Shown here: one piece after another, positions 2,878 to 53,404 of the stretch
Position numbering within the stretch: the first letter of the stretch is position 1
How the letters are laid out: the number at the start of each line of letters is the position of its first letter
Origin: an uncultured Candidatus Saccharibacteria bacterium
Lineage (GTDB): Bacteria; Patescibacteriota; Saccharimonadia; CAILAD01; JADZBC01
NCBI GenBank assembly: GCA_964436255.1
Contig: CAYTBW010000001.1
Span: 87,163 to 146,010 of the forward strand
DNA length: 58,848 nucleotides
Direction: 5' to 3'
The notes under the pieces: model-generated
Seen by the model: the letters and a program-made list of their open reading frames with translations, nothing else
Databases searched by the model: none
What the model was told of the DNA's origin: nothing
Made by a program: the position numbers and the translations under genes

Positions 2878-2930
2878 AAGGTTATTATAACCTATCTCCA
2901 GCTTTGCATCTCCTCTGCGCCGCTTGCATC

Positions 2931-3318
2931 CCCGACCTTGGAGTAACAGGATCAGTGAATCTGAGACCTTCAGCTCTAGCGAGGACTTAGCGTAAGCGAT
3001 CCCGCAGATAGAAGCTAGTAAGTCGAAGCATGAGATGAATCCTTGTTTGCGAACCCGTGGTCGGAAGGGCTTTAGGTTCTTTTGGCCCTTTCAAAAGAAC
3101 GAAATGGCTTAAAGGATAATGCTCTATATGTATTACTACTTTTGAATATACCAAAAGTAGTCAAAAGTATTGGCGACATGGGCTTCGAATCTAGGGGTGA
3201 CTGTTCTGACACTTCCTAGAATGTCGCTCCCACTGCGAGTTTGAGGACTCTCGTGGTTAGCTCTTTCTGGCTCGTGACTTCCAGTCTTCCTGATCCTCGA
3301 ATGTCGCGGTTAGCTACA
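2931..3318 (+). repeat. Mosaic intergenic repeat, copy A (TIR - module Y - core - module X - TIR)
   Basis: 2979-3007 is identical (29/29, direct) to 28102-28130. 3216-3258 matches 28335-28377 (41/43, direct). 3049-3103 is the exact reverse complement (55/55) of 28252-28306. 3137-3195 matches the reverse complement of 28164-28222 (about 52/59). Confidence 0.85.
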
Positions 3319-3456
3319 CAGAAGCTGCAAGTAATTCATAAGATGGGTAGTGAATTTTAGCTACTTTGCACAAACTAACGTGCTCGTGCTTGAGGCCCTT
3401 CTATAACACTAATTATCCTAGCCCTGTACGTATCGTCTACAGCCCTAGGAGGGACC

Positions 3457-11656: not shown

Positions 11657-12521
11657 GTAAACTCCAGTACACCCTAACTATACTATAGGTTGCTAGTGTC
11701 TGTATCGAACAAAGATACCGCTTCTTCTTAAGTGCCAGCTTAAAGAGGTCCTTCTGGTCTCCTAGGAACTGCTTTAAGATTATAGTGTCCACAGCGTATA
11801 CTCTTGCGTGACGCAATGCAGACACTAACCCTAGGGGCGGCGGGCAACTATTGGCCCACATACCGTCACGAATTTTACCTGAGGATTCCTGCTGAGTAGT
11901 GGCGTGAGTTACTGACACCCCTGAAGCATTCATGCGGTAGCTATAGAGCAACTCTGGAACAATCTGCACCTCATCATTAGGGAGGTTTGCCCAAAGGGCG
12001 TAGTCTTCGGCTGGGCCAACTTTGCTAGAGTAGTAGCGTGGCCCTTTAATCCTATATTTCTCGAACATTACCGAGCCATGGACCAGGCTGTTACCCAGGA
12101 AGAGCCTCCTTGAAACATCTCTACTGAGGTATGGGGCCTTATAAGCCCTGGTGTACCTACCGGCCTCATCAATGTTCTTCGCAAAGGTACCGCAGACTGA
12201 AGACAAAGAAGCCTTCATCACTTCGACCTGTCTTTCAAGTCTTGTAGGGGCACTTAGGTCATCGCCATCTTGTCTAGCAATATACTTGCCCCTCGCCTTT
12301 GCTATCCCCTCATTTAGAGAGGCAACCAGGCCTTTGTTCTCTCTGCTTATTAGTACTATGCGTGGGTCTTTATACTTCTTTATTACCTTTAGCGTATTAT
12401 CGGTTGATCCGTCGTTGATGATGATAAATTCAAAATCAGTAAATGTTTGGCCCAATATCGAATCTATGGCCTTAGCAACATATCCCTCACAGTTGTAAAC
12501 GCTCATTACTACAGAGACCAT
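11649..12521 (-). CDS. Glycosyltransferase family 2
   Basis: VSVVMSVYNCEGYV...IIINDGSTDNT...RQDGDD motifs. The start is moved to the internal ATG at 12521, which has AAGGTG 5 nt upstream and avoids overlap with the upstream gene. Confidence 0.8.
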   Translation of the reverse strand: MVSVVMSVYNCEGYVAKAIDSILGQTFTDFEFIIINDGSTDNTLKVIKKYKDPRIVLISRENKGLVASLNEGIAKARGKYIARQDGDDLSAPTRLERQVEVMKASLSSVCGTFAKNIDEAGRYTRAYKAPYLSRDVSRRLFLGNSLVHGSVMFEKYRIKGPRYYSSKVGPAEDYALWANLPNDEVQIVPELLYSYRMNASGVSVTHATTQQESSGKIRDGMWANSCPPPLGLVSALRHARVYAVDTIILKQFLGDQKDLFKLALKKKRYLCSIQTLATYSIVRVYWSLHV

Positions 12522-12565
12522 TGGTGCACCTTGTCGTCTAGACGCTTGGGCTTGCACTAATACCA

Positions 12566-13732
12566 CTATCTTCCTGCCCTTTCTTGGACCCATTTGCCTA
12601 AAGCTGTGCCAGGCTGCTCTATGAACATATAAGTGAGATTAGCCAGTGGGGTCACTATAGCAAGGGTAATAAGCACGGTTAAAAGGTATAGGATAGTCGC
12701 CTCTAAGCCTGTTGAAGCAGGACCGAACAGCCCTATTAAGCCCTTGCCGACCACAGGTATACATAGGAAGTGCAATAAATATACCGAGAAGCTAACTTTT
12801 CCAAGCGCACCCCAATATTTGTTTACAAAAAATCTTAACGGTCGCAACATTATGCCATACATAATGAGCGCCAACGGTATTGAGAACAAAATGGAGTTTG
12901 AATACTTGCTCAGAGTCATCCATATTGCGATTACTATGCCCGCCGTAAGCGCAGGCATAGCGTATTCGGTAGTATGCAGATCTCCATCGGTGCCCTTATT
13001 TTGTTCAAAGATATAAAATAACAAGATGCCTAACGCAAAGACCGGAATTTGAGTAGGCAAGAAAAGGAAGATAAAATTTGCCCAAGCTTGCGGCGTGAAT
13101 AGTGCTGGTAGTGGGTTGTCGACTAGCTGCACAACAGCCGCAAAGGAACTTGTTATAATCAAGAACCATATAGCGGCGTGCGTGCTTTTAACAAATCTGT
13201 ATATCAAGGGCACCAACGCATAGAAAAGCACCTCTACCCCAACTGACCACCCACCAGGAACAAGGCTATTGATATGGTTTGGCCAAAGGCCATGAGCAAA
13301 GGAAATGTGAGTCAGATAGTTGCTTAGTGAGAAATTCTGAGCGTCTGCAAGAAAGCCTATGCGCTCGGCAATCCCACTGCCGTATATCAATATGGCAAGA
13401 TAAAACATTGGGGCGATCCTGAAGAAACGGCGAATAAAAAAGCCTTGCCATTTGAAGTCTGAGTAGCTATTCTTGCTCTTCCGTAAGGAATAAAAGATTG
13501 AAAAAGCGCTCACGATGAAGAACAATTGCACGCCTCGCGCACCACTGATGGCAATATTATTGATAGGGCCGGGTAGTTGATTTGCGAACGGAGCTGAGGC
13601 ATGAACGAATATTACACCGAGCACTGCCCAGCCGCGTAAGGCATCTAAGAACATTAGTCTTTGGGTAGCGACCGAGCCATCAAAGTTCTGCCCTATGCTT
13701 TTACTCGAGTATTTGTTTGAGTTACTGTGCAT
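12566..13732 (-). CDS. Acyltransferase family 3 (OafA/YrhL-type membrane O-acyltransferase)
   Basis: 388 aa with about 10 TM helices. FLDALRGWAVLGVIFVHA N-terminal motif. Confidence 0.8.
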   Translation of the reverse strand: MHSNSNKYSSKSIGQNFDGSVATQRLMFLDALRGWAVLGVIFVHASAPFANQLPGPINNIAISGARGVQLFFIVSAFSIFYSLRKSKNSYSDFKWQGFFIRRFFRIAPMFYLAILIYGSGIAERIGFLADAQNFSLSNYLTHISFAHGLWPNHINSLVPGGWSVGVEVLFYALVPLIYRFVKSTHAAIWFLIITSSFAAVVQLVDNPLPALFTPQAWANFIFLFLPTQIPVFALGILLFYIFEQNKGTDGDLHTTEYAMPALTAGIVIAIWMTLSKYSNSILFSIPLALIMYGIMLRPLRFFVNKYWGALGKVSFSVYLLHFLCIPVVGKGLIGLFGPASTGLEATILYLLTVLITLAIVTPLANLTYMFIEQPGTALGKWVQERAGR

Positions 13733-15212
13733 CTTTGAGCCTAATAGAGGTAAGGGAATAGTACTTTGCCATATCGATATTGAACCAGTCTGTACTGTTT
13801 GAAGTTAGCTTTGCCAATGGATATATATCTGGCAATTCTGTATCGACAGAAATATCCTTACCAGCTTCAAGCTTCGCACGAACCTCCTTCTCCCTTGCAA
13901 AAAATGCAATCCGATAGTTCAGAACATTTTGGGTAACTTGATAGTAGTAAGACTTAAAATTGAGAAATCCAAACAGAGACAAGGAAGTAAGCACCAATAC
14001 CAATATCAATACTTTTCTTTGGCTCCAAACTCCGATCAAGCAAGCTGCTAAGTAACCAAATGCCAAAGGTATCCCCGTCAATAAGAATGAGAGTGGCGCA
14101 AGCGTCCGAGTGGGTATGTCTCGAGTTGCATAGTGAGAGGGGAAAATAGAAACAACTGACAGCAGAAGGGATGATGCCAATAAATATGAAAGCAGTGAGA
14201 ATAGCCTTTTTATGACTATTACTCTTCTTTCGGCCTTACGGCTGTTGGCCATTTTTAAGAAGATAATCCCGACACACAATCCAACGGCAAAGAGGATTAT
14301 TAATATACCCCAATGTTCAACAACGGCTACAGAGAAGTAATTAAAAATCGCCATTAAAGATGCTTTTAGTGACTCCTGGATACTCTCACTTGGACTAAGG
14401 AGTGCAATCCTTCTTTGTGTGCCTGGAGCAAAATATTGCAAAGAAAACGCAAGTAATAATAGTCCTGCGAGATACGGATATAACCTCCTTGGCTCTGCGA
14501 GCAAACGTTTTCTTTCTAGCGACAAATGGTCGATTGCCAAGAAGCTGGATGCATATATTACCGCGAGGGCTATTAGCCCTATTAGGGCGATACTTTCTGA
14601 AGCAAGGGCAGCCAAAAATATTACAGCTAAACCTATGTAGCGGGCTGTATTTCCCTTAAGGCCAAGCCTCGTGTGCATTAAGGCGTATCCTGCGCCGATG
14701 ATATATAGGGGTAGGAAGTATATAAATAAGCCAGGAGCCCATAAGGTAAGTTGATATTGTTCTGGTGAAAGGACGATGCTCCCCACAAAGGCTGTCGTCA
14801 CAGTAGCCAATGAGGCCATGAGTATTACTGTCTTAGGGCTAGTGCTATGCCAACTTTTATATAATAGATAAGTGGAAGTTGTTACAAAAAACAAGATCAA
14901 AGTAGTGACCCCAACGAGCAGTACGCCCGTGTGACCGGGGCCAAACATATGCACTAACGAAATAAGCGCCGTAGACCCAAGTCTACCTGTAAACGACTCT
15001 GTAGGACTTGCATACCAACTATACTGGGCGCCAACTATACCATAGTCGTCCACCCTACGAGCGTAGGCAAAGTCATCCGCGACATAAACAACATTGTGAA
15101 GATTACGAAAGTACAAGAAGAGCGCAATGCCAGCAAGGGCCGCAACAAATGCAAGAGCAGCGAATAGTATTCTCTTCGAGGTTAGGTTTTTCAAGTATGT
15201 CCCCTTAGCCAT
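13722..15212 (-). CDS. Polytopic membrane protein of unknown family (possible GT-C-like transferase or polymerase)
   Basis: 496-aa ORF with about 12 hydrophobic helices and no motif I can name. The call rests on its context inside the glycan cluster. Confidence 0.5.
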   Translation of the reverse strand: MAKGTYLKNLTSKRILFAALAFVAALAGIALFLYFRNLHNVVYVADDFAYARRVDDYGIVGAQYSWYASPTESFTGRLGSTALISLVHMFGPGHTGVLLVGVTTLILFFVTTSTYLLYKSWHSTSPKTVILMASLATVTTAFVGSIVLSPEQYQLTLWAPGLFIYFLPLYIIGAGYALMHTRLGLKGNTARYIGLAVIFLAALASESIALIGLIALAVIYASSFLAIDHLSLERKRLLAEPRRLYPYLAGLLLLAFSLQYFAPGTQRRIALLSPSESIQESLKASLMAIFNYFSVAVVEHWGILIILFAVGLCVGIIFLKMANSRKAERRVIVIKRLFSLLSYLLASSLLLSVVSIFPSHYATRDIPTRTLAPLSFLLTGIPLAFGYLAACLIGVWSQRKVLILVLVLTSLSLFGFLNFKSYYYQVTQNVLNYRIAFFAREKEVRAKLEAGKDISVDTELPDIYPLAKLTSNSTDWFNIDMAKYYSLTSIRLKDAQ

Positions 15213-15939
15213 TTTGAGCCTTCTCAGCTACGACCACTATCGACGTCCCAAATGGGAAATTTAAATACCTAAGCATCCATGCCTCCAAATATAAAAGCCA
15301 CGTAAAGAGAGTGTTAATTGCCCCTGGGAGCATAACATATGACGACTCCCGCTTTCTACCGGTTATACTACTTAATAGCCTATGCAAAACAATTAGTGGG
15401 AAGGAAAAAACTATCGCATAGGACCTCTTCTTCATAACATAGCCGGACCTGGATACTAACATATGAACCTGAGAAGCGGTATATCTCCTTTGGTGGTGTA
15501 GCCTCTCGTCATGCTCGCTCCAAAGCCACTGGTACGCAGGAACTGTCATCACCAATTTTCCTCCAGGCTTCAGTACACGTAGCCACTCCACTAGAGCCTC
15601 ATAGTCAAGCTCGATATGCTCAAGAACATCTAGCGCGATTACCAAGTCAAACCGCTTGTCTTTGTAAGGTAGCCGTTTGCCATTATAGCCCCTAACGTTC
15701 CTCAGGCCCTTTTGCTTACAAAAATTAATAGCCTCTTCCGAAACGTCTACGTTATAAACCTCTCCATACCTGCTAAGCAAGCCCACGGTGCCACCTGTTC
15801 CACAGCCTATATTTAGAATGTCGTTATCAGTGGAAGACGTATTGATATCAAGCTGCTTCTGCACAATCTTAATTCGGCCGCGATGCCACCAGTAAACCTC
15901 TTCCATTTTTGCCATTTCGGCGTACTCATTCTTCATCAT
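15205..15939 (-). CDS. Class I SAM-dependent methyltransferase
   Basis: ILNIGCGTGG motif I and DLVIALDVLEH motif. The start is set at ATG 15939 (MMKNEY...), 4 nt after the upstream stop. The longer track ORF overlaps the upstream gene. Confidence 0.8.
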   Translation of the reverse strand: MMKNEYAEMAKMEEVYWWHRGRIKIVQKQLDINTSSTDNDILNIGCGTGGTVGLLSRYGEVYNVDVSEEAINFCKQKGLRNVRGYNGKRLPYKDKRFDLVIALDVLEHIELDYEALVEWLRVLKPGGKLVMTVPAYQWLWSEHDERLHHQRRYTASQVHMLVSRSGYVMKKRSYAIVFSFPLIVLHRLLSSITGRKRESSYVMLPGAINTLFTWLLYLEAWMLRYLNFPFGTSIVVVAEKAQNG

Positions 15940-15943
15940 AAGC

Positions 15944-16816
15944 CTAGATCCTTTGCCACGATTCCGGCACCACGTCGCTAGTATTAATCGATGGGTCATT
16001 GAACCATTGCTTGGGAGCAATAACAACCTTAGCTTCATTAGTGTTAAGCCATGCACCCCACCAGCTAAAGCTGCTGTTGGCGAGCACATTGTGCCTACAC
16101 GACTTCATGAGCCGCATATCCTCTGCGCCGTCTTTATTCCAGTCTACATAGGTAGTATTGTGTTTAAACTTAAGGTTTGCTTTGCACCAATCAGGATCGT
16201 CTGAAAATACGTAGTAGCTTGGGTTTTTTACTGACTTTTCAATAATTTTTGTCGCGGCCTGGTAGTAATCAACCCCCCTTAGTCCGTGGAAATCCGCTGC
16301 GTTTTCGTTGCTAACATAGTCTCCCCTGCGAACATGTATAGACACAGAGTTTTCGTCTTTAGCTATAGTCTCTAGCAGCCTCTTATTCTTGCCTGTTGCT
16401 GGCTTAGCCCATTTGAAGTCAACTAGGAGTTCCTGCCGAATATGTGCAAAGTACTTCTCGGACTGAAAGTAGCCATCCAAATACGTATTGTTGGGTTGAC
16501 CCAAAAAGTCGCTGGCGTAATGATAGTGGGGTTCGCGGTATAGCTTTAGTGCCTTCCTTCCAAATGCCGGGGCCACGAATGCCTTAGCCTTGCTGGCTGT
16601 GCCGGGGCCGGCAAAGAAGGGCTTAAAATCTATAAAATCCTGCTTTAGGCTAAACGAATTAAGCTCATAGTGACGGGGTGTGTCGCCTGGAGCTATCTGG
16701 TCAAACCACGACCTATCCATTTGTATGTCGGTGCCTAGTTTGGCTGCCAGACCCTTGGCTGCAGCATACTCGAACATCTGGTTCCCTAGTCCGCCAACTA
16801 ATTTAACTACAATCAC
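15944..16816 (-). CDS. Glycosyltransferase family 11 alpha-1,2-fucosyltransferase
   Basis: GGLGNQMFEYAAAKGLA and HVRRGDY motifs characteristic of GT11 (FutC/WbsJ type). GTG start overlapping the upstream TGA. Confidence 0.85.
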   Translation of the reverse strand: MIVVKLVGGLGNQMFEYAAAKGLAAKLGTDIQMDRSWFDQIAPGDTPRHYELNSFSLKQDFIDFKPFFAGPGTASKAKAFVAPAFGRKALKLYREPHYHYASDFLGQPNNTYLDGYFQSEKYFAHIRQELLVDFKWAKPATGKNKRLLETIAKDENSVSIHVRRGDYVSNENAADFHGLRGVDYYQAATKIIEKSVKNPSYYVFSDDPDWCKANLKFKHNTTYVDWNKDGAEDMRLMKSCRHNVLANSSFSWWGAWLNTNEAKVVIAPKQWFNDPSINTSDVVPESWQRI

Positions 16817-17979
16817 TTTGTTTTACCCCTATATATTACTAAGTACTTCCTAGCCAGTATATCCCAGCTATAGTTTGCCTTCCAGTTCTTGTAGCCTTCC
16901 TTGGCTAACTCTGCCAGTTTTTTATCATCCCTTAGCATGTCCTTGAGCAGCTCTGCCGATTGCATAATATTAGCATGTGAATTTCCAATCTCGTCCTTCG
17001 CTGTAGGCATAATGACTCCTCCTTTGGTCCATTCTGCTATCTCAGTAGCATTACCCACGTCGGTGCTCATAAACGGTGTCTTTGCCGCACAAGCTTCAAA
17101 AAGTACGAGCGGTGATGCCTCTATATTCGATGGAAAGAGGAACAAGTCCGCCTCTTCGAGCAGGCTAACTGTTGCTGGCCGATCTAGCTGAGTAACTATA
17201 ACCCGTCTTTTAGCTCGAATGTTGCTGGGCTTTAAGTTGAATAGCATAGCTTGGGCTTGGCACTTTTTATAAAGCTTCCTGTCAAAAACATTACCGACAA
17301 GAACAAGTGTAGCTTGCTTAAGCTTTGCTCCTGCAAAGATCTTAATGGCTTCAGGCTGACCCTTCTGCCCCGTGAAGCTACCGAGTTGCATAATCAATTT
17401 ACTATTTGAGGGAACTCTAAGCTGCTTCCTTACATTCAATGTTTTTTTACCAAACTCCCTCTCGTCGGCACCATTAGGGATTATATGTATATTGAGTACG
17501 CCGTGCTCTTTGGCAAAAACCGTATCTCGATAGGTAGGAGAGAGATAGACCGTGGCGTCGAACTTTTTAAGTAAGGTTGGCATTGCTTTGAAGTAGTCTT
17601 TATACATCGGATCGTGGAGTCCAGAAAAACCACAGGGTACAAACACCTTCCGTGCTTTTATTTTGTCCATAACTTCCAGATATAGGTCAGTTGCCCACTG
17701 TTGAGCGGCATAGTCCATAATCACATCAAAACTATTTGAAAGTAGAAAATCCTTGTATCTCTGAGTGTCGCCTATATATCCACGCACCGCATTACCGGAA
17801 ATATCGAACTCAACAATCTTCACGCCATTGAACTCCTTGAAGTCACGCTCGGCCAGTTTCGAAGTAGCTACCGTTACTTCATGGCCTAGCTCGACCATCC
17901 GTTCAGAAAGCTGCTTAACCACCTCCTGCGAACCGCCTTTGGATGGATGGTAGAATTCTACTGTATGGAGTATCTTCAC
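16813..17979 (-). CDS. Glycosyltransferase family 4 (GT1-fold)
   Basis: 388 aa. N-terminal KILHTVEFYHPSKGGSQEVV and C-terminal FPSNIEASPLVLFEACAAKTPF. Confidence 0.8.
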   Translation of the reverse strand: MKILHTVEFYHPSKGGSQEVVKQLSERMVELGHEVTVATSKLAERDFKEFNGVKIVEFDISGNAVRGYIGDTQRYKDFLLSNSFDVIMDYAAQQWATDLYLEVMDKIKARKVFVPCGFSGLHDPMYKDYFKAMPTLLKKFDATVYLSPTYRDTVFAKEHGVLNIHIIPNGADEREFGKKTLNVRKQLRVPSNSKLIMQLGSFTGQKGQPEAIKIFAGAKLKQATLVLVGNVFDRKLYKKCQAQAMLFNLKPSNIRAKRRVIVTQLDRPATVSLLEEADLFLFPSNIEASPLVLFEACAAKTPFMSTDVGNATEIAEWTKGGVIMPTAKDEIGNSHANIMQSAELLKDMLRDDKKLAELAKEGYKNWKANYSWDILARKYLVIYRGKTK

Positions 17980-17982
17980 GGT

Positions 17983-18852
17983 TTAATTATATAGGAGTCG
18001 GGCATGCAAAGAAGTAGCTTTTGCCGCCAATTTGTAGATAATCTGATTCAACCCATGGCTCATCGTAGCGATAAAATAATATGCAGCCGACAGTGCTCTA
18101 AGCGAGGCCCCTTTATTATCCTTATCAACTTTTTTGGCTACGCTCTTGTAGACACTCACTAATCTCTTCGTCGCAAGCAATTCTCCTGCGCGACTGATAT
18201 TACTATCATGAACCCTATATAGAACGTTTGGAGATACTTGGTAAGCAATCTTGCCTTTCGCAGCTATTCGCAGCCAAAGTTCATAGTCCTCTACGGCCTT
18301 TAGCTCAGGCTTTTCGTCGAAACCGTCCATCTGCACAAGAGTATCTCTTCTAGCGACTGTAGCCGAGGTGCAAATGAAGTTATTCTTTAAGAGCTCGCTA
18401 TAGCCAGGTTCCCTAGGCAGTAATTGCTCTATTACTACCAGTCCGCCCATCTTTATGCCTTTTGCATCAATCTTCTCAGCGTTCGAGGACACCAAAATCA
18501 CTTTGGGGTCACGGTTGAGTATCTCTATTTGTCCTTTTAGCTTAGCGGGTAGCCATATGTCGTCGGAATCCAGAAAAGCCACGTATTCGCCTTTGGCCTT
18601 TTTTAGGCCAATGTTTCGAGGTACTGCTGGACGACCACTATTCTCAATTTTGTGATATATGACTCTCTCGCCATACCCTTCTACAACAGCCTGTGTGTTG
18701 TCTGTTGACCCGTCGTCGACTACGATAATCTCTTGTTGAAAAAGACTTCCGGCTCCTTTTTGAGCCAATACGCTATCTAGTGTAGCAGCTAAGTACTCTG
18801 CGGAATTGTAGCTTGGTATAACTACAGAGACTAACGGCTTTTTTTTGCCCAC
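17983..18852 (-). CDS. Glycosyltransferase family 2
   Basis: VSVVIPSYNSAEYL...VVDDGSTDNT...FLDSDD motifs. Confidence 0.85.
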   Translation of the reverse strand: MGKKKPLVSVVIPSYNSAEYLAATLDSVLAQKGAGSLFQQEIIVVDDGSTDNTQAVVEGYGERVIYHKIENSGRPAVPRNIGLKKAKGEYVAFLDSDDIWLPAKLKGQIEILNRDPKVILVSSNAEKIDAKGIKMGGLVVIEQLLPREPGYSELLKNNFICTSATVARRDTLVQMDGFDEKPELKAVEDYELWLRIAAKGKIAYQVSPNVLYRVHDSNISRAGELLATKRLVSVYKSVAKKVDKDNKGASLRALSAAYYFIATMSHGLNQIIYKLAAKATSLHARLLYN

Positions 18853-19490
18853 GTCTTTGCCAGTTGAGTGTCAAAATCTTTCAACCAAGTCTTTAGTAGG
18901 TCTTGCTCGCCCTTTGAGTCATCAAGAGTGAAGTTATGCAAGTAAGCTTTTGCGGACTTGCGAGCACCTACCTGACTAATTGAGGACTGCTTGATGGCAA
19001 TAACTTCTATATTATGAGTCTTCTTCCAAGAGTTTCTTTTTACCTTCACGACACTGAAGCCCATTGCCTCAAGGGCAGTCTTTAAAAGTTTCTCAGACCA
19101 ACCTTCGTAATGAACTGCCCAATGAGCCTCGTTAGATCCAAATATGTGCCTGAGCGCCACGCCCTTTGCGCGCTCTGAGGATCGGGGGTTAAGGGCGACC
19201 AATGCGGTCCTGTTAAAATCTGGCACTTCGATGTGTAAGGTGCCGCCATCGGCCAACCAGGAATTCCACGAGGCCAATAGTGCGATCGCGTCCTGTCGCA
19301 AGAAGTGCTCGAAAACATGATGCAGCCTAACCTCCTCAATACTCTTCTCAGGATATCTCAACTTCGTGAGGTCAGCGAGCTTATCGGCGACAGACTTGGT
19401 CTGAACCGAGTGTTCCGTTAGTGGATAGTCGATATTGACGTACCCCTCCATATATCTTTGTCCACAACCAAGATGCAACTTCCTACTCAT
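18831..19490 (-). CDS. SAM-dependent methyltransferase (type 11/23-like)
   Basis: 219 aa. KLHLGCGQRYMEGYVNID and LHHVFEHF motifs. Confidence 0.7.
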   Translation of the reverse strand: MSRKLHLGCGQRYMEGYVNIDYPLTEHSVQTKSVADKLADLTKLRYPEKSIEEVRLHHVFEHFLRQDAIALLASWNSWLADGGTLHIEVPDFNRTALVALNPRSSERAKGVALRHIFGSNEAHWAVHYEGWSEKLLKTALEAMGFSVVKVKRNSWKKTHNIEVIAIKQSSISQVGARKSAKAYLHNFTLDDSKGEQDLLKTWLKDFDTQLAKTWAKKSR

Positions 19491-19526
19491 GCGTACTTCC
19501 TTCCCTTTGAGTTAGACAACCAACCA

Positions 19527-20204
19527 TCACCTTGAAGACCAGGTCTTCTTGTCAACAAAGATGGTGTTGATATACGTATCCGCGTATACCATGTAGCCGA
19601 CTGTCTCCATATATTTTATAATGCTGCGAATCTTCCCCTCAGATGAGTCGGCCGTGTAGGTTAATGTCTCGATACAAAACACGGGTGGTCGGTAGGTTTT
19701 AAAATCCCATGCTTTAATAATCTCCAGGTCCAAGCCTTCGACATCTAAAGAAACAAAGTCGGGCTGAACCGAACACTCATTCTCAAGGACATCATTGATC
19801 GACCTAACCCGCACGACTTGTGTCTCTTTAATCTTGTGGCCCTGCTCCACGTAGCGCTCCGCTTCGGACTTAGAAAATGTGTTTAGTGTGGGAGGATCAA
19901 TTTTATAGAATGTTAGCTCGTCACCCTGTGCCCCCACGCCTATAGGGAGAACTACATCCCTACTACGCTTTCTTTTTATTGTAGCTGCTAGATTCGGATC
20001 GGGCTCGATACAAACACCTTGGCACCTTTTTCTGTAAAACATGTATGTGTTACTAAGGTATGTAGGGTGGTGGGCCCCTAGATCTAAATAATATGGCTTT
20101 GTTATGCCAAGTTGTTCGAGCACAAACTCGACAATTATATCCTCACCGCACTGAGCATAACTGACTTTGCCGTCTTTCCCTATCATTATTTTTCCCTTCC
20201 CCAC
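19527..20204 (-). CDS. FkbM family methyltransferase
   Basis: 225 aa. YLDLGAH...VCIEPDP...VSLDVEGLDLEIIK pattern of FkbM-type methyltransferases. Ends with a non-overlapping TGA stop. Confidence 0.75.
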   Translation of the reverse strand: MGKGKIMIGKDGKVSYAQCGEDIIVEFVLEQLGITKPYYLDLGAHHPTYLSNTYMFYRKRCQGVCIEPDPNLAATIKRKRSRDVVLPIGVGAQGDELTFYKIDPPTLNTFSKSEAERYVEQGHKIKETQVVRVRSINDVLENECSVQPDFVSLDVEGLDLEIIKAWDFKTYRPPVFCIETLTYTADSSEGKIRSIIKYMETVGYMVYADTYINTIFVDKKTWSSR

Positions 20205-23429: not shown

Positions 23430-24479
23430 ATGTATACTACTTTATATATGAAGCATGTAAAACCGCGAGACAGAACAGTTGATGTGATCAAAGGCATGGC
23501 TATCTTGCTAGTCGTAGTTGGTCATGCCATACAGTCGACCTACCTGGACTTTGATTCTAATTTTATATTCAGATTTATATACGCGTCCCACATGCCGCTG
23601 TTCATGTTTATAAGTGGGTATGCGGCAGGATTTTCGGCTGGCTCAGACAGAGGTGTTGGCATTTATAAAAAGTTCCTTGCCTTAATGGTTCCATTCATAA
23701 GCTGGTATGCTGTGGCCTACCTCATAAATCAAAGTTGGAATACTGTAGGGCTTAAAGCCTACGTGGCCAGAGTCATAATCTCTCCTGATTGGGGCCTATG
23801 GTTTCTGCCAGTACTGTTCTCCTGCTTTGTACTTCTCGCGGCGGGCAAGAAATTTGAGCCAAAATTTGGCGCTACAATATACCTAGTCATTTGGGTCGGC
23901 CTACAACTGATTCCTACTGGAGCCTTCGGGCTAGACCTGATTAAATGGCATTTTGCCTTCTTTATTGTTGGATATTTGGCTAAGTCATTGTTCAAGTTGT
24001 CAGAGATCAAGATCTCTCCGTTGCTATGTACTGCGATTGGCGGCGCCTATTCTGGAATGGTGTTGCTTTGGTGGCGAACGATGACGGCCATAGACCTATC
24101 ATTGCTAAGATTTATACCTATTCCAGGCGGGGACCTTACGCACCCAGTTCTGGTAAACCTGTTTAAGTACTTCGTAGCGCTGTTGGGGATCTTCTTCTGG
24201 TGGGCGGTCACCCAGCAAATAAGTGGCTTTAAGGCAGCGCGGGTGTTGGCATATCTAGGCCTATTCACTATGGATATATACGTGTGTCACCTATACTTCT
24301 TTAAGCTAAGTCCTGGTAGCGAACTCGCCAGAGCAGTCCTCAGTGTCGTATTTGGCGTAATTCTACCACTCGTCCTATCTTACCTCCTCTTGCGAAGGTT
24401 TAAGACCCTAAACAAACTGTTTCTCGGGAATAGGCCTTTGGACGACTTTAAGCGCCTTAAATCCGGCCTGCGGTCCTAG
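23430..24479 (+). CDS. Acyltransferase family 3 membrane protein
   Basis: 349 aa. DVIKGMAILLVVVGHA motif and about 10 TM helices. The 3' end overlaps the convergent gene by 23 nt. Confidence 0.8.
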   Translation: MYTTLYMKHVKPRDRTVDVIKGMAILLVVVGHAIQSTYLDFDSNFIFRFIYASHMPLFMFISGYAAGFSAGSDRGVGIYKKFLALMVPFISWYAVAYLINQSWNTVGLKAYVARVIISPDWGLWFLPVLFSCFVLLAAGKKFEPKFGATIYLVIWVGLQLIPTGAFGLDLIKWHFAFFIVGYLAKSLFKLSEIKISPLLCTAIGGAYSGMVLLWWRTMTAIDLSLLRFIPIPGGDLTHPVLVNLFKYFVALLGIFFWWAVTQQISGFKAARVLAYLGLFTMDIYVCHLYFFKLSPGSELARAVLSVVFGVILPLVLSYLLLRRFKTLNKLFLGNRPLDDFKRLKSGLRS

Positions 24480-26325
24480 TGTTCCAAACGGCCCTGTCCT
24501 GAGCATTATAGAGTACTAAGTTGCCGTCGTTTTGCACGACCAATCTGACGTTCCCTGCGTTCTGGGTCCATGTCGCCCAGTAATATGTAGTGTTGCCGTA
24601 CAGCACCAAGTTGCCGTCGCCCTGAACGGATAGCCTGTTCGCTGGCTTCCCATTCGTACCTGTCCACCATATTGGTCGATTTGGTGAATACAGCACCAAG
24701 TTGCCGTCGCCCTGAACGACTAGCCGATACCTGCCATCAGCTGAAACCATTGACTGGTTAGCCGTCAAGGACTGACCGGAGCTTAGAACGCCAGCGGGTT
24801 GTACCGACCCCCCCGTCACAGTGATGGTACTTGTGACGGCCTGATTCAACCACCTGTAGCCCTCGGCTACGAGGGAGAAACTTTCAATGTATGCCCCGCC
24901 ATTGGCTGGCGCCTTTATTGGTACCGTAAAACTGGCATTTTGTCCCGGTGAAACTATCGCCTCGTTCATTGCGGCGGGCCGATTAGCTCCAAGCCAGCCC
25001 GTCGTATAAAAGGCGCTTGCTCGATCTGTCGGATTAAAAGTGCCAAGATTAACGGGGTTTCGGCCGTCTTTATACCAAGCAACGTTGCTGTCATTTCGGA
25101 TTGTGATGACCCCCGAACCAGAGGCTTGCGCCGCAATAGAAGTAGGTAGGGTGTTAGAGATGGTACTACCAGAAAGATTCGCCGCCGATACATTTATACC
25201 CCAATATAGACCTGGGTCATTCATCCACGCAATGCCTTCGGCTACCAGATTAAAGTACTCATTGTACGTACCTGGCGACACAGGAGCCTGAACAGTAAAG
25301 GTGAATGTTCCAGTTTGCCCTGGAGCTACACTCGGTTCGTTCAGGTTTGCTGCTCTACCGCAGCCAAGCCACCCGGCCGTGCAAAATCCACTACTGCGAT
25401 CCATCGAACGGGTTGTTGCTAATCGGACCGGGTTTGGGCCAGAGTTAACCCATGTGGTCGAACCAGTATTAAGTGCACTAAGGGTCCATGTGCCCTTCTG
25501 TGTTGCAACCATGCTTGACCCAACATTGCTGCCTTGGCCTGCATATTGCCAACTATACCGAGGCTGAGTTGTGCTCCCACTACCAAAGAAGTACTCAAAC
25601 CAGTACGGGAAGCTTTGATTCCTGTGGGGGGTGTAGTTGTAAAGCGAGGCAGTGGCGCCGTTGCCCATGCGGGTGTTAACCCCACCTATAACTGAGTAGC
25701 CATCAAAATAAATTAGTGCACAGCTACCGCAGCGACGCCGGTTGCCTTCCGTCATACGCCCACCGTAATTAATAGAATCGTTTCCGCCCCAACTAGTGTT
25801 GCCTTCCGCACGCTGACGATCAAAGGCCAGCTGCCACGCGCCCTTCATAACCTGGCGCTCAAAGCCAGCGGCCCAAGCTGCCGGACAGGCGCTCGCACCT
25901 TCGTAACAGGCGTAGCCCATAGCTTTGTTAAGCGACGGCACGTCACTAACGCAGTCCCCGTCGGTAAGCATGCCCTGTTCCTTTTGCAGAGTAGCTAAAA
26001 TAACTCTTGGGTTGATTTCGTTGTATTGAGCGGCCTTGTAGATTACCCGAGCAGCGTCAACTTTGTTTGGTCCGTAGTTAAAGTAGTCCATTGGCTCATC
26101 GAAGATGTTGCCGCCGCCGAGTCCGGAGCCTACGCGGGTTAGGCAGGTGTTTGGGCGAGACTGAATAAATGCACGAATCTGCGCTTCGTTCATGGCGTCC
26201 TTAGCGTCGAACACGGCGTTGTCGATCATATTCTCGTTTGAGTACGCCTTAGCGGGCGCAGCCTGAATAGCGACCACGATGGCTGCTGCGAATACTGCTA
26301 ATGCTAACTTTCTAAACAACTTCAT
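24457..26325 (-). CDS. Secreted multidomain protein: conserved N-terminal domain (ATLQKEQG motif), two Ig-like modules, C-terminal bulb-type (monocot mannose-binding) lectin
   Basis: Signal peptide MKLFRKLALAVFAAAIVVAIQAAPAKA. Duplicated PGQ..(T/S)F(T/.)V..(A)P...G.Y.E.F.LVAEG..W modules. The C-terminus carries three QxDxNxVxY motifs (QGDGNLVLY, QGDGNLVLY, QNDGNLVLY). Confidence 0.75.
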   Translation of the reverse strand: MKLFRKLALAVFAAAIVVAIQAAPAKAYSNENMIDNAVFDAKDAMNEAQIRAFIQSRPNTCLTRVGSGLGGGNIFDEPMDYFNYGPNKVDAARVIYKAAQYNEINPRVILATLQKEQGMLTDGDCVSDVPSLNKAMGYACYEGASACPAAWAAGFERQVMKGAWQLAFDRQRAEGNTSWGGNDSINYGGRMTEGNRRRCGSCALIYFDGYSVIGGVNTRMGNGATASLYNYTPHRNQSFPYWFEYFFGSGSTTQPRYSWQYAGQGSNVGSSMVATQKGTWTLSALNTGSTTWVNSGPNPVRLATTRSMDRSSGFCTAGWLGCGRAANLNEPSVAPGQTGTFTFTVQAPVSPGTYNEYFNLVAEGIAWMNDPGLYWGINVSAANLSGSTISNTLPTSIAAQASGSGVITIRNDSNVAWYKDGRNPVNLGTFNPTDRASAFYTTGWLGANRPAAMNEAIVSPGQNASFTVPIKAPANGGAYIESFSLVAEGYRWLNQAVTSTITVTGGSVQPAGVLSSGQSLTANQSMVSADGRYRLVVQGDGNLVLYSPNRPIWWTGTNGKPANRLSVQGDGNLVLYGNTTYYWATWTQNAGNVRLVVQNDGNLVLYNAQDRAVWNTRTAGRI

Positions 26326-28038: not shown

Positions 28039-28431
28039 TGTAGCTCTGCCTTACGCGACATTCGAAGATCAGAAAGACTGGAGCTGCCGACGCCAGAACG
28101 AGCGAGGACTTAGCGTAAGCGATCCCGCAGCGAGTATCTAGTGACAAAGCGAACAGTCACTTCTAGATCTGAGCCCCATGTCGCAGATACTTTTGGCTAC
28201 TTTTGGTATCTTCAAAAGTAGCAATCCATAAAGTGCGTCCCTTTTAAACTATTCGTTCTTTTGAAAGGGCCAAAAGAACCTAAAGCCCTTCCGACCACGG
28301 GTTCGCATCTAGGTGCGTTCGTTCACTCATGAATCTAGAATGTCGTGCCCACTGCGAGTTTGAGGACTCTCGTGGTTCACTTGTTCTGGCGCGTGGGCTC
28401 CTCACTACCTGATGCTCCAAGGTCGGGTTAG
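28039..28431 (+). repeat. Mosaic intergenic repeat, copy B
   Basis: See copy A. Own imperfect terminal inverted repeats: 28045-28072 resembles the reverse complement of 28408-28437. The right arm 28397-28431 is 35/35 identical (inverted) to 53252-53286. Confidence 0.85.
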
Positions 28432-28478
28432 GGCAAGAATCACGAAAGTCTGACGAAAAAGTTGCTAACAGTATATAA

Positions 28479-30140
28479 TTGGTAGCAATGACAACCAAGA
28501 AAGCCCAGGCAAAACAGAAGTTGGTGAATCCTAACGATTCGCTCGACCTGCCGACGCGCAAAAAACGCAGCCTTAGCCGTAAGGTTAGCTATGGCTTAAT
28601 AGTAGCTTTGGGCCTGTTCGTACTCACTACTGTTGCCCTGCGCGCAGCTTACGCAAGTCGCATTTACCCCGGGGTGTGGGGCCACGGCGTATACCTGGGC
28701 GGGCTAACTCCAAGTGAGGCCTCCAAGTTGCTCGACAAAGAAACCCTAGCCTACAGTCAGAACCCCATTCTAATCGAAGCAAACGGCAAGACGGTGTCCG
28801 TCCCCCAGAAGGACATTAGCGTTACCTATAACAACGAAACTCTCAGTAAAGAACTAATGCGCCAAGGCAGGGACGGCAACGTAGCAGAGCAAGTGATAAG
28901 CCAATGGGCTTTGCTAGCCGGGATTGCTAGCCGGGACAACACCAATCTTACTTACGATGATGCCGCGCTCGCCACTACAACCATTGCAATCAACAACGAA
29001 CTTACCACGCCGAGCGTGAACGCTAGCTACCAGGTAGCCGAAGGCCAGGTTGGGTTTACCGCCGGGATTGCTGGTAAGAGGTTGGATTACGGTGCGCTTG
29101 GCCTAGCCCTACATAGCGCGTTAGCAAGACTAGATGAGCAGATTATCCCTGTACAGACTGATAGCGTGGAGCCATCAGTCGACAGTGCAACACTCGAGGC
29201 TAACAAGGCCCTAGCCCAAAGCTATATCAGCTCTCCCCTGCAGCTTGGCTACGAAGGCAAGCTTTGGCAGGTAGAGCCTGCGGCCGCATTCGGCTGGCTG
29301 CATTCCACTACGAGCCCCGAAGCCAAGGTGTACTCCCAGAACCTGCTCGAGGAATACTATGGCGCAGCTACTCCCGCCAAAGAACTAGAGTTTGACGCTG
29401 CACGCATTGATTCGTACTTAACTGAGATTAGTAAAGAAATTGACCAGGCAGCTATAGACGCACAGCTGAACGTGACAGACAGCAGAGCTACCATATTCGT
29501 AGCAAGTCGAGATGGCAAAAAGCTCAACGTAGTAAAAACGCGTGACGCCATACTGGCCTCGCTCAACAAAAGCGACGCCGAACGCACCATTGCAATGAGC
29601 GTAGACACCACTAAGCCAACAGTTAACGAAGAAAGTATTAACAACCTTGGCATCAAGGAACTGTTAAGCGAAGGGGTAAGCTACTTCCCCGGATCATCAG
29701 CCAATCGCCTGACCAACGTTCGAGTAGGTGCAGCGCGGTACAACGGCGTACTCCTAAAGCCTGGCGAGGTGTTCTCTTTCGGTAAGCTCCTGGGCAATGT
29801 TGGGCCCGAGGAAGGCTACACTCCTGGCTGGGTTATATTAGGAGACCGGCAAGAAGAGCAGTACGGCGGCGGCTTGTGCCAAGTGTCGTCCACTGCATTC
29901 CGCGCGGCGCTGCTAGCCGGCCTACCAATCTTAGAACGAGTGAACCATGCCTTTGCAATCAGCTACTACACCGCGCCGTATGGTGTTCCTGGGGTAGACG
30001 CCACAATTTACTACCCTCCTGTGGACTTTAAATTCCGTAACGACACCGATGCGCACATACTTATCCAAACCGAAATGGTTGGCACAACCCTCAAATTTAG
30101 ATTCTACGGCACCAAGAAGAAGGAAGGCGTAATTCGCTGA
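28479..30140 (+). CDS. VanW family protein (membrane anchored)
   Basis: 553 aa. N-terminal TM (VSYGLIVALGLFVLTTVAL). VanW core GGGLCQVSSTAFRAALLAGLPILERVNH. Ends at an in-frame TGA that is followed by 50 more sense codons (see findings). Confidence 0.85.
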   Translation: MVAMTTKKAQAKQKLVNPNDSLDLPTRKKRSLSRKVSYGLIVALGLFVLTTVALRAAYASRIYPGVWGHGVYLGGLTPSEASKLLDKETLAYSQNPILIEANGKTVSVPQKDISVTYNNETLSKELMRQGRDGNVAEQVISQWALLAGIASRDNTNLTYDDAALATTTIAINNELTTPSVNASYQVAEGQVGFTAGIAGKRLDYGALGLALHSALARLDEQIIPVQTDSVEPSVDSATLEANKALAQSYISSPLQLGYEGKLWQVEPAAAFGWLHSTTSPEAKVYSQNLLEEYYGAATPAKELEFDAARIDSYLTEISKEIDQAAIDAQLNVTDSRATIFVASRDGKKLNVVKTRDAILASLNKSDAERTIAMSVDTTKPTVNEESINNLGIKELLSEGVSYFPGSSANRLTNVRVGAARYNGVLLKPGEVFSFGKLLGNVGPEEGYTPGWVILGDRQEEQYGGGLCQVSSTAFRAALLAGLPILERVNHAFAISYYTAPYGVPGVDATIYYPPVDFKFRNDTDAHILIQTEMVGTTLKFRFYGTKKKEGVIR

Positions 30141-30307: not shown

Positions 30308-31678
30308 CTATTTACCGATGCAAAAACGGCTAAACATGTCAGCTATCATTGCATCATTCGTGTCGGCACCGGTAATACGTGTGAGCTGCTTGGCGGCCGA
30401 TTCGAGTTCTACGAGTACAATGTCACGCGGTGCTCCAGAGCCCAAAAGAGTAATTACTTGAGTAATATGCCCTTTGGCGAGAGTTGCGAGTTCTAGCTGT
30501 CGCTTGGTGGTCAAGACGACATCTCCAGGCGTGTCATGAACGTCGGCTAGCCCAATGAGTGCTTTTTGCAAACTCTCCATGCCGTCGCCAGTTTGGGCGG
30601 AAACCTGCACGACTTGGCTCGCCCATTTGGGCTTACGTGGAGCGTCTTGCGCCTCGTCTGACTTAGTAGCTATTAGGATAGTTTGCTTGGCGTTCAAATC
30701 CTCCATAAGCCCGGACTCTTCTAGGTAGTTATGGGTTTCGGCGAGTGCCCTTGGGGCGACCAGCACAAGTACCACATCTGCCGAGTTAACCGTGCGATGC
30801 GTGCGCTCTATGCCGATAGCCTCAACTTCATCAGGGTTGGTGTTTAAGCCCGCTGTATCGGTAAGCCTAAACGGAATGTCGCCGAGGATGATACGCTCCT
30901 CGATAGTATCGCGTGTAGTTCCGGCAATGTCAGTAACAATGGAGCGCTCAAAGCCGAGTAGCTTGTTGAGCAAGGTGGATTTACCGGCATTCGGCAGTCC
31001 TACTAGCGCTACGCTAACGCCGTCGCGCAGTACCGAAATATTCTGGGAGTAATTGATGAGCTCTGTAAGTTCTGCTTCCACTGACTGCACCTTAGCAAGC
31101 AGTGTGTCATGGGTCTGTTCGGATACGTCTTCCTCGCTAAAGTCTAAATGGGCGGCCTCAGAGGCAGCCAAGCCAACAATATCCTCAACGAGGGTTGCCA
31201 TTTTGTGAGACAAGCCCCCTGCCAATTGATCGGCAGCCAATCGAGCCAACTTACTACTCTCTGCCTCGACTAGGTCGGCTACAGCCTCCGCCTGGGTAGC
31301 ATCTAGCTTGCCGTTTAGGAGCGCGCGCTTCGTAAACTCGCCTGGCTCGGCTAAGCGCGCACCGGCAGATAAGCAGGCGTTCAAAACTTCGTCAATAACA
31401 GCTGGCGACCCATGAGTATGAAGTTCTACCATATCCTCCCCCGTATATGAGCGCGGGGTGTGGCTCGTAGTAATTAGTCCACTATCTAACTTGCGCCCAC
31501 TAAGAGTAATCCAGCCGCCGTAGAGCCGATGTGGATCGAGATGCTCAACCGGCTGCTTACCATGCCATAGGGTCTGTACAATACTAAAAGCATCTGGCCC
31601 GCTTAATCGAATGATAGCTATTGCACCACGGCCACGCGGGGTGGAAAGCGCAACGATGGTATCTACAGGGGAGTTCAT
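30308..31678 (-). CDS. mnmE: tRNA modification GTPase MnmE (TrmE)
   Basis: G1 GLPNAGKSTLLN, DTAG, and the C-terminal CIGK tetrapeptide. Confidence 0.95.
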   Translation of the reverse strand: MNSPVDTIVALSTPRGRGAIAIIRLSGPDAFSIVQTLWHGKQPVEHLDPHRLYGGWITLSGRKLDSGLITTSHTPRSYTGEDMVELHTHGSPAVIDEVLNACLSAGARLAEPGEFTKRALLNGKLDATQAEAVADLVEAESSKLARLAADQLAGGLSHKMATLVEDIVGLAASEAAHLDFSEEDVSEQTHDTLLAKVQSVEAELTELINYSQNISVLRDGVSVALVGLPNAGKSTLLNKLLGFERSIVTDIAGTTRDTIEERIILGDIPFRLTDTAGLNTNPDEVEAIGIERTHRTVNSADVVLVLVAPRALAETHNYLEESGLMEDLNAKQTILIATKSDEAQDAPRKPKWASQVVQVSAQTGDGMESLQKALIGLADVHDTPGDVVLTTKRQLELATLAKGHITQVITLLGSGAPRDIVLVELESAAKQLTRITGADTNDAMIADMFSRFCIGK

Positions 31679-31691
31679 CAGACTATGACTC

Positions 31692-32960: not shown

Positions 32961-32969
32961 GTGTTAGGA

Positions 32970-53215: not shown

Positions 53216-53251
53216 TCTTTTCTACCGCTTCCCCACCTCGGATTCCTGCTT

Positions 53252-53340
53252 CTAACCCGACCTTGGAGCATCAGGTAGTGAGGAGCTCATGAACCAGAAC
53301 GGGTGAACCACGTCCAGGATATTCGAATGTCGCAGAAGGC
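53252..53340. repeat. Mosaic repeat, copy C (internally deleted; arms only)
   Basis: 53252-53286 is the exact reverse complement (35/35) of 28397-28431. 53312-53340 (TCCAGGATATTCGAATGTCGCAGAAGGCA) resembles the distal right arm of copy A (3289-3312). Confidence 0.7.
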
Positions 53341-53351
53341 AGGAGTGGCAG

Positions 53352-53382
53352 AATACAAAACGACCCACTTGTGTGGGTCGTT
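53352..53382 (-). terminator. Rho-independent terminator of the hsp20 gene
   Basis: Minus strand: AACGACCCAC - ACAA - GTGGGTCGTT followed by TTGTATT. Confidence 0.7.
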
Positions 53383-53404
53383 ACCGTTTCAGGATGCGAA
53401 TAGC

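Follow-up and report, generated by a model that had tools for sequence, protein, structure and literature searches.

The 58,848-nt stretch analyzed here (the window) comes from an uncultured Candidatus Saccharibacteria genome (contig CAYTBW010000001.1, positions 87,163 to 146,010). It carries two intergenic elements of about 390 bp, copies A and B, which are co-linear in some parts and reverse-complemented in others, and a shorter relative at a third locus, C. This arrangement raises the question whether the elements work as an invertible DNA switch or belong to a family of palindromic mobile repeats. The preliminary description of the window had offered both an invertible segment and a nested palindromic miniature inverted-repeat transposable element (MITE). 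We found that A, B, and C belong to a lineage-restricted family of mobile repeats in Saccharibacteria from wastewater. The repeats are non-coding and pseudo-palindromic, and the family has not been described before; full-text searches retrieved no published description of elements resembling MITEs or repetitive extragenic palindromic (REP) sequences in Saccharibacteria or Patescibacteria. The idea of a nested palindromic MITE was broadly right, the family being multi-copy, bounded by terminal inverted repeats, non-coding, and insertion-polymorphic. With a probability of about 60%, we regard it as a mobile palindrome resembling MITEs and REPINs (REP doublets forming hairpins), in which layers have been flipped, deleted, and exchanged, and the contrast between A and B as one fixed outcome of this process.

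The match counts from which an inversion had been proposed were all reproduced by script. They comprise a 55/55 block (3049–3103 vs. the reverse complement of 28252–28306), a second inverted block whose best 59-nt stretch matches at 52/59, and two modules in direct orientation, namely Y (29/29; 2979–3007 vs. 28102–28130) and X (41/43; 3216–3258 vs. 28335–28377). An independent repeat search returned two direct pairs (2933–3019 with 28056–28142, and 3216–3306 with 28335–28425) and two inverted pairs (3048–3115 with 28240–28307, 68 nt, 93%; 3121–3206 with 28151–28236, 86 nt, 84%). Y and X are direct while the middle of ~205 bp, running from CTAG to CTAG (3015–3219 in A, 28138–28338 in B), is reverse-complemented, and the four CTAG-containing octamers lie at the breakpoints where they had been placed. 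The right arm had also been taken as co-linear, which it is not: the outer arms are swapped and inverted too, so the relative orientation of A and B alternates across three nested layers. We aligned seven segments of A locally on both strands of B, with shuffle maxima of 13–17. The inverted score was the higher one for the T1 arm (left arm of A vs. right arm of B; 18 against 9), m1 (17 against 9), the inner core (76 against 23), m2 (22 against 14), and the T2 arm (right arm of A vs. left arm of B; 33 against 20), and the direct score for Y (29 against 7) and X (35 against 8). The repeat search likewise returned an inverted pair for each of the two outer arms. Equivalently, A and B are oppositely oriented copies that hold their X and Y cassettes on opposite arms.

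The full element, of about 390–470 bp, can be pictured as nested inverted repeats, with T1 and T2 as outer arms, an X, Y, or Z cassette in each arm, a closing stem of ~13 bp formed by m1 and m2, and a T-shaped core (Table 1); sizes across all forms are 90–470 bp. Copy B is an imperfect palindrome when compared with its own reverse complement (28049–28432, E = 1e-21) and folds with a terminal stem of ~55 nt. Its self-complementarity, this stem, and the T1 and T2 arms being alignable variants of each other bear out the earlier view that the element is bounded by terminal inverted repeats. The real extent of the element reaches ~40 nt past the limits first drawn for it. The two hairpin units of the core, hp1 and hp2, are mutually related and point toward each other with a copy-specific spacer in between, which makes the element pseudo-symmetric about that spacer. 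No open reading frame (ORF) of at least 80 aa lies wholly inside A, B, or C, and the only ORFs overlapping them run in from the flanks, in line with the earlier statement that no annotated gene explains the element. A submotif, GAATGTCGC, had been counted at least seven times over the three loci. Its exact form occurs four times there (0.29 expected) and five times in the window, and a count of at least seven is reached only with the degenerate forms GAATGTCGT, CCATGTCGC, and CAAGGTCGG; at one mismatch, the submotif shows no enrichment across the whole window.

Outside the window, a 24-mer of cassette X matched only two contigs among 185,579 species genomes, both from metagenome-assembled genomes (MAGs) of Candidatus Saccharibacteria/Saccharimonadia, and the runs holding the region are metagenomes of wastewater, sludge, and freshwater. 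No match was obtained by blastn of A against plasmids and phages or in scans of viral contigs for the element, and no copy was present in ~75 kb from more distant relatives. Neither an X 21-mer nor an hp1 pattern matched any contig in the scanned collection of Joint Genome Institute (JGI) metagenomes, which evidently lacks those samples in which the element does occur. In the probable source run (X1), unique flanks have a word depth of ~6x. Modules reach 5–17 times flank depth (hp1 ~100, T1 94–116, hp2 ~57, m1 ~40, X ~33), with Y at ~12 and the hairpin spacer and m2 at 6–7 each, and T1 is bordered by many different 255-nt flanks in four runs. Judged from module depth relative to the flanks and from the many T1 flanks, there are about 15 copies per genome equivalent, if the copies come from one population. 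Orthologous loci of related strains were reached via homologues of the flanking proteins; together with loci L001 and L002, they bring the sample to ~11 distinct copies.

Maps of the modules in 10 copies and in those of L028, drawn so that T1 comes first, show how the parts are combined. Copy A reads T1, Y+, m1, hp1 hp2, m2, X+, T2', and the reverse complement of B reads T1, X-, m1, hp1 hp2, m2, Y-, T2'. The full C element of L003/L004 is T1, X-, m1, hp1 hp2, Z, T2'; site A in L013 is T1, Y+, m1, hp2- hp1-, Z, T2'; and a fourth site, D, in L013 and L028 (reverse complement) is T1, X-, m1, hp2- hp1-, Z, T2'. L002 is a half element (T1, X, m1, hp2), and L001 has a core with hp2 first, followed by m2, X, and T2'. 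T1 is on the m1 side in all seven arms showing both, T2 is always on the m2/Z side, and the cassette position beside the terminus is taken by X, Y, or Z in either arm. The core is oriented with m1 next to hp1 in five copies and next to hp2 in six. Copies occur in both orientations relative to neighboring genes and in 5', 3', and convergent contexts. The many module combinations of the other copies are largely what the preliminary description had expected of a plain decaying repeat family. The 28 nt of cassette X are identical (28/28) in genomes that differ at the species level. The motif in m1 is ACTAG in both L013 copies and ACCCG in the copies of the window and L003; this split by genome points to gene conversion within genomes, i.e., concerted evolution. 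Deriving X from Y by an internal micro-inversion was tried and dropped, since only 4 nt agree beyond the common flank, and IS66-type ends, an idea prompted by GTAAGCG inside Y, found no support in the anatomy.

Filled, shortened, and empty alleles were found across sites A, B, C, and D in related strains. Site A holds an element in the window, L013, and L028 and none in L007, L020, and L021 (GT4 glycosyltransferase 85–93% identical). Its three filled alleles have three architectures. In L013, the left half is locus-specific (133/146 identical to the window), the core between GTGGTCGG and G(C/T)GACATG is inverted relative to the window, and a Z-type right arm stands in place of m2-X. In L028 (GT4 93% identical), the site carries a B-type element (T2, Y+, m2-, hp2-, hp1-, m1-). 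A 25-kb inversion by recombination between A and B was considered as the origin of the L028 architecture and rejected, because the chimeras it predicts (T1.Y...Y'.T2' or T1.X-...) were not matched. L018/L019 have no element at site B, and the intergenic region there measures 55 nt. At site D, the window lacks an element, L007 retains a remnant of ~110 nt, and a full element is found in L013 and L028. In the latter two strains, we also observed that two full elements bracket the GT4 gene (L013 4331–4734 and 5900–6290; L028 1–270 and 1440–1900), with the T2 arms of both facing the gene in L028; such a pair could allow inversion or loss of the GT4 gene.

Three alleles were found at site C, namely full, short, and empty. 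A full C element of the same architecture, ~385 nt in L003/L004, is present on two large contigs from JGI (429 kb and 89 kb), and the allele of L003/L023 is longer by ~300 nt than the short one, which occurs in the window and in L025 (another contig from the same JGI sample). The short allele equals the full one minus ~300 nt lying between the direct repeats GAACCAC(G/A). Such a loss between direct repeats is the signature of slippage, and the short form is a deletion derivative of the full element. In run X7, 53216 adjoins 53405 directly on a contig at depth 16.7. The whole 188 nt are thus missing there and the two convergent genes abut; its flanks have 0–1 mismatch, and a filled allele occurs alongside at depth 10.3. 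A terminator-like hairpin (AAAACGACCCACTTGTGTGGGTCGTT) lies at 53359–53382 between the convergent genes and may travel with the element, as it belongs to the 188-nt block absent from the X7 empty allele. Two side observations concern the 89-kb contig (L004/L024). Several of its genes, such as those for the solute-binding protein (SBP) and DsbD, are split or shortened compared with the 429-kb contig of the sister sample (L003/L023), which looks like indel errors of a long-read assembly; and its hp1–hp2 spacer differs from that of L003 despite identical flanks.

The idea of an invertible segment finds support only on an evolutionary time scale, in the three architectures at the orthologous A site, one of them of B type, and in the occurrence of the innermost core in both orientations across copies. 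No sign of an active switch was found. Contigs of the source sample, assembled at ~6x and liable to drop rare variants, show a single orientation per locus at the depth of the flanks: one 427-nt contig of depth 6 links the unique flank of B with hp1' by way of T2, Y, m2, hp2, and the spacer, and A-specific junction contigs have a depth of 6.4–7. A fixed orientation of this kind was the outcome that the preliminary description had associated with a decaying repeat family. We read the A/B difference as a fixed product in two paralogous copies rather than a working switch. No sigma-70-like promoter was found inside A or B, the only promoter-like sites found lying outside the elements at 3439–3412 (minus strand) and 28450–28479 (plus strand), and an invertible promoter was dropped as a candidate because the flipped part holds no promoter-like site. 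A Pfam scan of 36 ORFs of the window returned no tyrosine recombinase, serine recombinase, or transposase, in agreement with the earlier remark that no recombinase gene is present.

These data bear directly on programmed site-specific inversion, in which a recombinase encoded elsewhere would flip the core or the CTAG block in the manner of an inverton or shufflon and thereby switch an RNA or regulatory state next to glycan genes. It would suit the inverted repeats that bound the flipped segments, the nearly equal frequency of the two core orientations among copies, the three architectures at the A site, the position of A and B at the two ends of a strain-variable glycan cluster of ~25 kb, and the over-representation of the A region among metatranscriptome contigs (see below). 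We nonetheless hold it to be very unlikely, given the single orientation per locus and the lack of a sigma-70-like promoter in the flipped parts and of a recombinase among the 36 ORFs. In addition, half of the four sites, C and D, are flanked by convergent gene ends and offer a switch nothing to control, the repeats are imperfect and different between copies, and three independent nested layers plus cassette swaps exceed any single pair of recombination sites. The chance is just as slight that the T-shaped core and the CTAG block are substrates of an enzyme-driven flip-flop that runs at a measurable rate and changes the stability or translation of adjacent surface-glycan transcripts; either a HUH nuclease that processes hairpins or a recombinase, with its gene elsewhere in these tiny genomes, could drive it. 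On this view, the elements at the two ends of the glycan cluster might also be recombination handles for swapping that cluster. If flipping were enzyme-driven, it would represent a new switch type and a novel sort of phase-variation device in episymbiotic bacteria of the candidate phyla radiation (CPR).

A false inversion produced by mis-joined repeats in a short-read MAG was considered as well, and contigs of the source run do break inside the repeat, as do those of L001 and L028, which end within elements. The independent evidence makes an assembly artefact extremely improbable. Specifically, a Logan contig assembled independently connects the unique flank of B to hp1 at the depth of the flanks, contigs that overlap and contain unique segments place m1, hp1, the spacer, hp2, and m2 of copy A in phase, five independent assemblies agree on the L013-type locus, and the 429-kb and 89-kb JGI contigs share the architecture of the full C element.

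We then considered the folding of the element. The core has been noted for its hairpins, and together with m1 and m2 (~145 nt) it indeed folds as a closing stem around two hairpins (z-scores, -3.1 to -3.8). Across seven aligned cores, stems are 97.6% paired and five pairs are changed on both sides, which 0/500 shuffles reach. One helix varies as GGGC:GCCC, GGAC:GTCC, AGAC:GTCT, and GACC:GGTC, and the hp1 stem changes from TT:AA to CC:GG. Two hp1 helices are 100% paired, with both-side changes in 3/6 and 2/9 pairs. These two helices cross, and with linkers of 0 nt and 1 nt an H-type pseudoknot is sterically implausible and was rejected; we read them as alternative folds or interleaved DNA palindromes. 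Template switching in quasi-palindromes copies one arm from the other and yields paired changes without RNA selection. Hence, the paired changes can stem either from selection on the folded strand or from template switching, and they are no proof of RNA function.

RNA from the region was detected in two metatranscriptomes, in the form of contigs with a depth of 2–6x and no strand information. Five of the seven contigs mapping at >=97% to the first 9 kb fall in 2910–3395 (binomial P about 9e-6), and some cross both borders of A. This fits co-transcription in the leader of the GT4 gene, starting from a conserved TAGACG-16-GATAAT site (3439–3412), together with a stable hairpin RNA, and the hairpins may affect RNA stability. 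One could take the elements for structured non-coding RNA genes or cis-regulatory RNA elements, of which the hairpins are the product and the palindromic look is secondary. The two fully paired hp1 helices with their compensatory changes, the fold z-scores, the A-specific sequence in two metatranscriptomes in which neighboring genes are absent, and the identity of cassette X across different species all suit this proposal. It seems improbable to us for several reasons: the two covarying helices cannot form together, template switching also yields paired changes, copies occur in both orientations and in all three contexts, and presence/absence plus large deletions between near-identical strains are not gene-like. 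The transcript evidence is shallow and strandless, and Rfam 15 gave no match at the gathering score. At E values up to 10, Rfam gave none in A and, in B, two chance matches to microRNA models (17 and 16 bits; threshold 100).

The anatomy, the multi-copy status, the polymorphism of insertion, deletion, and orientation (the last also at an orthologous site), the compensatory stem changes, and the single orientation per locus in the source sample were observed directly, whereas the mechanism of inversion, the mode of transposition, and any effect on RNA are inferred. For the mobile palindrome that we favor, we propose the following course. Every layer is bounded by short inverted repeats, so single strands exposed in replication can fold back. 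Intramolecular recombination or template switching between the repeat arms would then flip the enclosed segment, slippage between short direct repeats would delete the interior, and gene conversion between copies, which could pair in either register, would swap cassettes. The elements would be carried along in transcripts.

Several facts weigh against this explanation. Among the 36 ORFs of the window and in the relatives' loci examined, no transposase with matching ends was found, and no clear target-site duplication emerged: C shows only an imperfect TAG(T/C)CT at each edge of the filled allele and a single copy in the empty one, and the ill-defined ends at A, B, and D revealed no consistent duplication. 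Transposition is thus suggested by presence and absence alone, and precise deletion could explain some empty sites. The repeats bounding the layers are short and imperfect (9–13 bp, or CTAG only), which makes them a poor substrate for ordinary homologous recombination. The strict linkage of T1 to m1 and of T2 to m2 across a variable cassette is unlike what random crossing-over predicts, and the identity of X over 28 nt hints at constraint or recent horizontal spread, which the model leaves unexplained. The sample is also small (~11 distinct copies), and the contigs of the source run were assembled at only ~6x, a depth at which a minority orientation below ~15% would escape.

The CTAG borders suggest another route to the nested structure. 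IS5-group insertion sequences duplicate CTAG at their target, and each layer could be an independent small MITE inserted, in random orientation, into a preferred target such as CTAG in the middle of another copy. The alternating orientations would then reflect separate insertions and not inversions. CTAG is ~3.3-fold enriched in A plus B (8 sites in 781 nt vs. 2.4 expected, P = 0.003), it bounds the inverted block exactly in both copies, and the short site D element of L007 has a tandem CTAG-CTAG where longer copies hold the middle block. Half and short forms exist, and in X1 the inner modules are deeper than the outer ones (hp1 ~100x, X ~33x, Y ~12x), a gradient that the higher diversity of outer modules at the 90% mapping cut-off would also explain. 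Such nested insertion is unlikely in our judgment. No solo layer was seen outside the arm context in ~300 kb of loci examined, and the middle block lacks terminal inverted repeats of its own beside the CTAGs. The nesting order is identical in every full copy, which would need repeated site-specific events, and the innermost core flips between GTGGTCGG and GCGACATGG with junctions that hold no duplicated bases.

We also compared the family with known systems. Three of the five features that define MITEs were found, namely small non-coding size, terminal inverted repeats, and dispersed insertion-polymorphic copies; size and copy number set it apart from the REP class, and the lack of a recombinase and of a promoter from the inverton class. 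A close parallel is offered by Correia repeat enclosed elements (CREEs) of Neisseria, bacterial MITEs that are small, non-coding, and intergenic, with subtypes of terminal inverted repeats in different combinations, full-length and internally deleted forms, insertion polymorphism among strains, co-transcribed hairpins, and reported in situ inversion (PMC10969869, citing Elbeyioglu 2017; PMC2649163). Unlike CREEs, the Saccharibacteria element belongs to another host phylum, with no likeness noticed, though no direct sequence comparison was made; it is 2–3 times longer and has at least three nested, independently oriented inverted-repeat layers, and no TA duplication, promoter-like site, or integration host factor (IHF) site was identified in it. 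REPs, bacterial interspersed mosaic elements (BIMEs), and REPINs (PMC2817692, PMC3333891, and PMC3116915) share the mosaic of palindromic units with alternating orientation and variable linkers, the inverted doublets forming a long hairpin, the singlet or half forms (here L002), and the extragenic position, often at 3' ends of genes. In contrast to them, the half-units here are ~190 nt rather than 20–40 nt, there are ~15 copies rather than hundreds, and a GTAG-type 5' tetranucleotide is missing. The Pfam scan of the 59-kb window (36 ORFs) detected no REP-associated tyrosine transposase (RAYT/Y1).

Three further systems resemble the element in single aspects. Hairpin-associated small inversions in non-coding plastid DNA and template switching at quasi-palindromes of E. 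coli are recurrent and need no dedicated recombinase. As here, a segment between short inverted repeats occurs in both orientations among close relatives, with apparently compensatory changes in the stem, but those are single hairpins at fixed loci, with no dispersed mobile family, nested layers, or cassette exchange. Inverted terminal repeats (ITRs) of parvoviruses form T-shaped terminal hairpins with flip and flop isomers. The likeness is one of topology only (a ~145-nt unit, a closing stem around two hairpins, two inversion isomers), whereas the present element is internal to a bacterial chromosome and has no sequence relation and no known HUH nuclease or nick site. Invertons and shufflons likewise have segments of 100–300 bp that lie between inverted repeats and occur in either orientation. 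Shufflons show nested or multiple inversions, and a location near surface-polysaccharide genes is a further common trait. They differ in that our elements contain no internal promoter or coding segment, adjoin no recombinase, show no detected heterogeneity within the sample, and are convergent at half of the sites.

Saccharibacteria and other CPR bacteria have genomes of ~1 Mb, which are regarded as containing few repeats and little mobile DNA. With ~15 copies and turnover between near-identical strains, the family gives rise to assembly breaks (several contigs end inside it) and provides a marker for strain typing, and it may drive rearrangement around surface-glycan genes, which are important for the episymbiotic life style. 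With three independently oriented nested layers, also at an orthologous site, the family is a natural test case for how inversion mediated by inverted repeats, deletion, and gene conversion shape palindromic DNA in a repair-reduced genome.

Table 1. Coordinates of the three loci and their modules in the window
Feature	Position	Strand	Remarks
Copy A	2931..3318	+	weak outer inverted repeats out to about 2893–3374
A: T1-type outer arm	2931..2978	+	CCCGACCTTGGAG...; reverse complement of B-right arm
A: cassette Y	2979..3014	+	CTAG at 2976 and 3015 on either side; direct relative to B
A: block reverse-complemented in B	3015..3219	+	CTAG to CTAG; m1, inner core, and m2
A: m1	3037..3064	+	left half of imperfect ~13-bp closing stem (CGAACCCGTGGTCG)
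A: inner core	3065..3171	+	hp1, copy-specific spacer, hp2; GC 32%
A: hairpin unit hp1	3065..3100		stem GTTCTTTTG/CAAAAGAAC
A: copy-specific spacer between hairpins	3101..3135		
A: hairpin unit hp2	3136..3171		stem CTACTTTTG/CAAAAGTAG
A: m2	3173..3219	+	right closing-stem half (CGACATGGGCTTCG) and small CTAG-boxed hairpin
A: cassette X	3229..3256	+	CCCACTGCGAGTTTGAGGACTCTCGTGG; same 28 nt in B, L001, L002, L003
A: T2-type outer arm	3259..3308	-	CGCGACATTCGA... read inward; reverse complement of B-left arm
Copy B	28039..28431	+	self-complementary overall, 59.5%
B: T2	28054..28084		left part
B: Y	28103..28130		left part
B: m2	~28141..28186		left part; reverse complement
B: hp2	28187..28221		left part; reverse complement
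B: hp1	28255..28290		right part; reverse complement
B: m1	28291..28307		right part; reverse complement
B: X	28348..28375		right part
B: T1	28397..28427		right part; reverse complement
Locus C	53217..53404	+	short element allele at 53252–53342; T1 from 53256; deletion junction 53312/53313; GAATGTCGC at 53325–53333; outer inverted-repeat sequence present

The three loci of the window have different intergenic contexts. Copy A lies between the divergent starts of the GT4 glycosyltransferase gene (2877, minus strand) and an LGFP-repeat gene (3457). A mannose-1-phosphate guanylyltransferase gene ends (28036) just before copy B, which is followed by a promoter-like site and the start of a VanW/peptidoglycan-binding gene. 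Locus C lies between convergent SBP and Hsp20 genes. The surface-glycan cluster between A and B (3457–28036, ~25 kb) encodes GT4, GT2, and GT11 glycosyltransferases, a Wzy-like ligase, an ABC-2 exporter pair, a GDP-mannose dehydratase, epimerases, methyl- and acyltransferases, and ManC. Its gene content is variable among related strains (L012, L018, L020, and L021), and the repeat elements lie at its two ends. Within the cluster, three 37-nt matches at an exact spacing of 90 nt (24509–24725) lie in a 622-aa ORF (24457–26325) with matches to the Ig-like N_BRCA1_IG and to B_lectin, a pattern that suggests a 30-residue repeat in the predicted protein.

The region of 30308–38033 is the neighborhood of the replication origin, with mnmE, jag/khpB, yidC, yidD, and rnpA on the minus strand followed by dnaA (33885–35276), dnaN, recF, and a DciA-domain gene; these names come from synteny with L018 and one Pfam hit. 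Copy B is ~5.5 kb from dnaA. A 28-nt similarity of 79% (TACACAGAAGCTGCAAGTAATTCATAAG) connects the right flank of A (3315–3342) with the dnaA–dnaN intergenic region (35484–35511), which could be chance or a common upstream motif.

Further downstream, the window contains a type IV secretion/pilin cluster. Five small paralogous ORFs stand in a row at 49948–51786, the orthologues of which in L003/L023 match T4SS_pilin/TrbC, and they adjoin TrbL-like, PrgI-like, and TraG/VirB4-like genes (38–50 kb). A 750-aa ORF on the minus strand (47681–49933), whose orthologue in L023 is TrbL-like, includes three tandem 57-nt units (47730–47873; 98% and 68% identical to the reference copy) rich in GGTCCTGCTGGT. 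The number of these units may differ between strains, as BLAST matches with L023 overlap at that place. In L020, a relative with an empty A site, an island after the cellulase gene (12497–19600) encodes a large serine recombinase (Resolvase/Recombinase/Zn_ribbon_recom), a ThsB-like TIR protein, and helix-turn-helix (HTH) regulators, and looks like an integrated element carrying defence genes.

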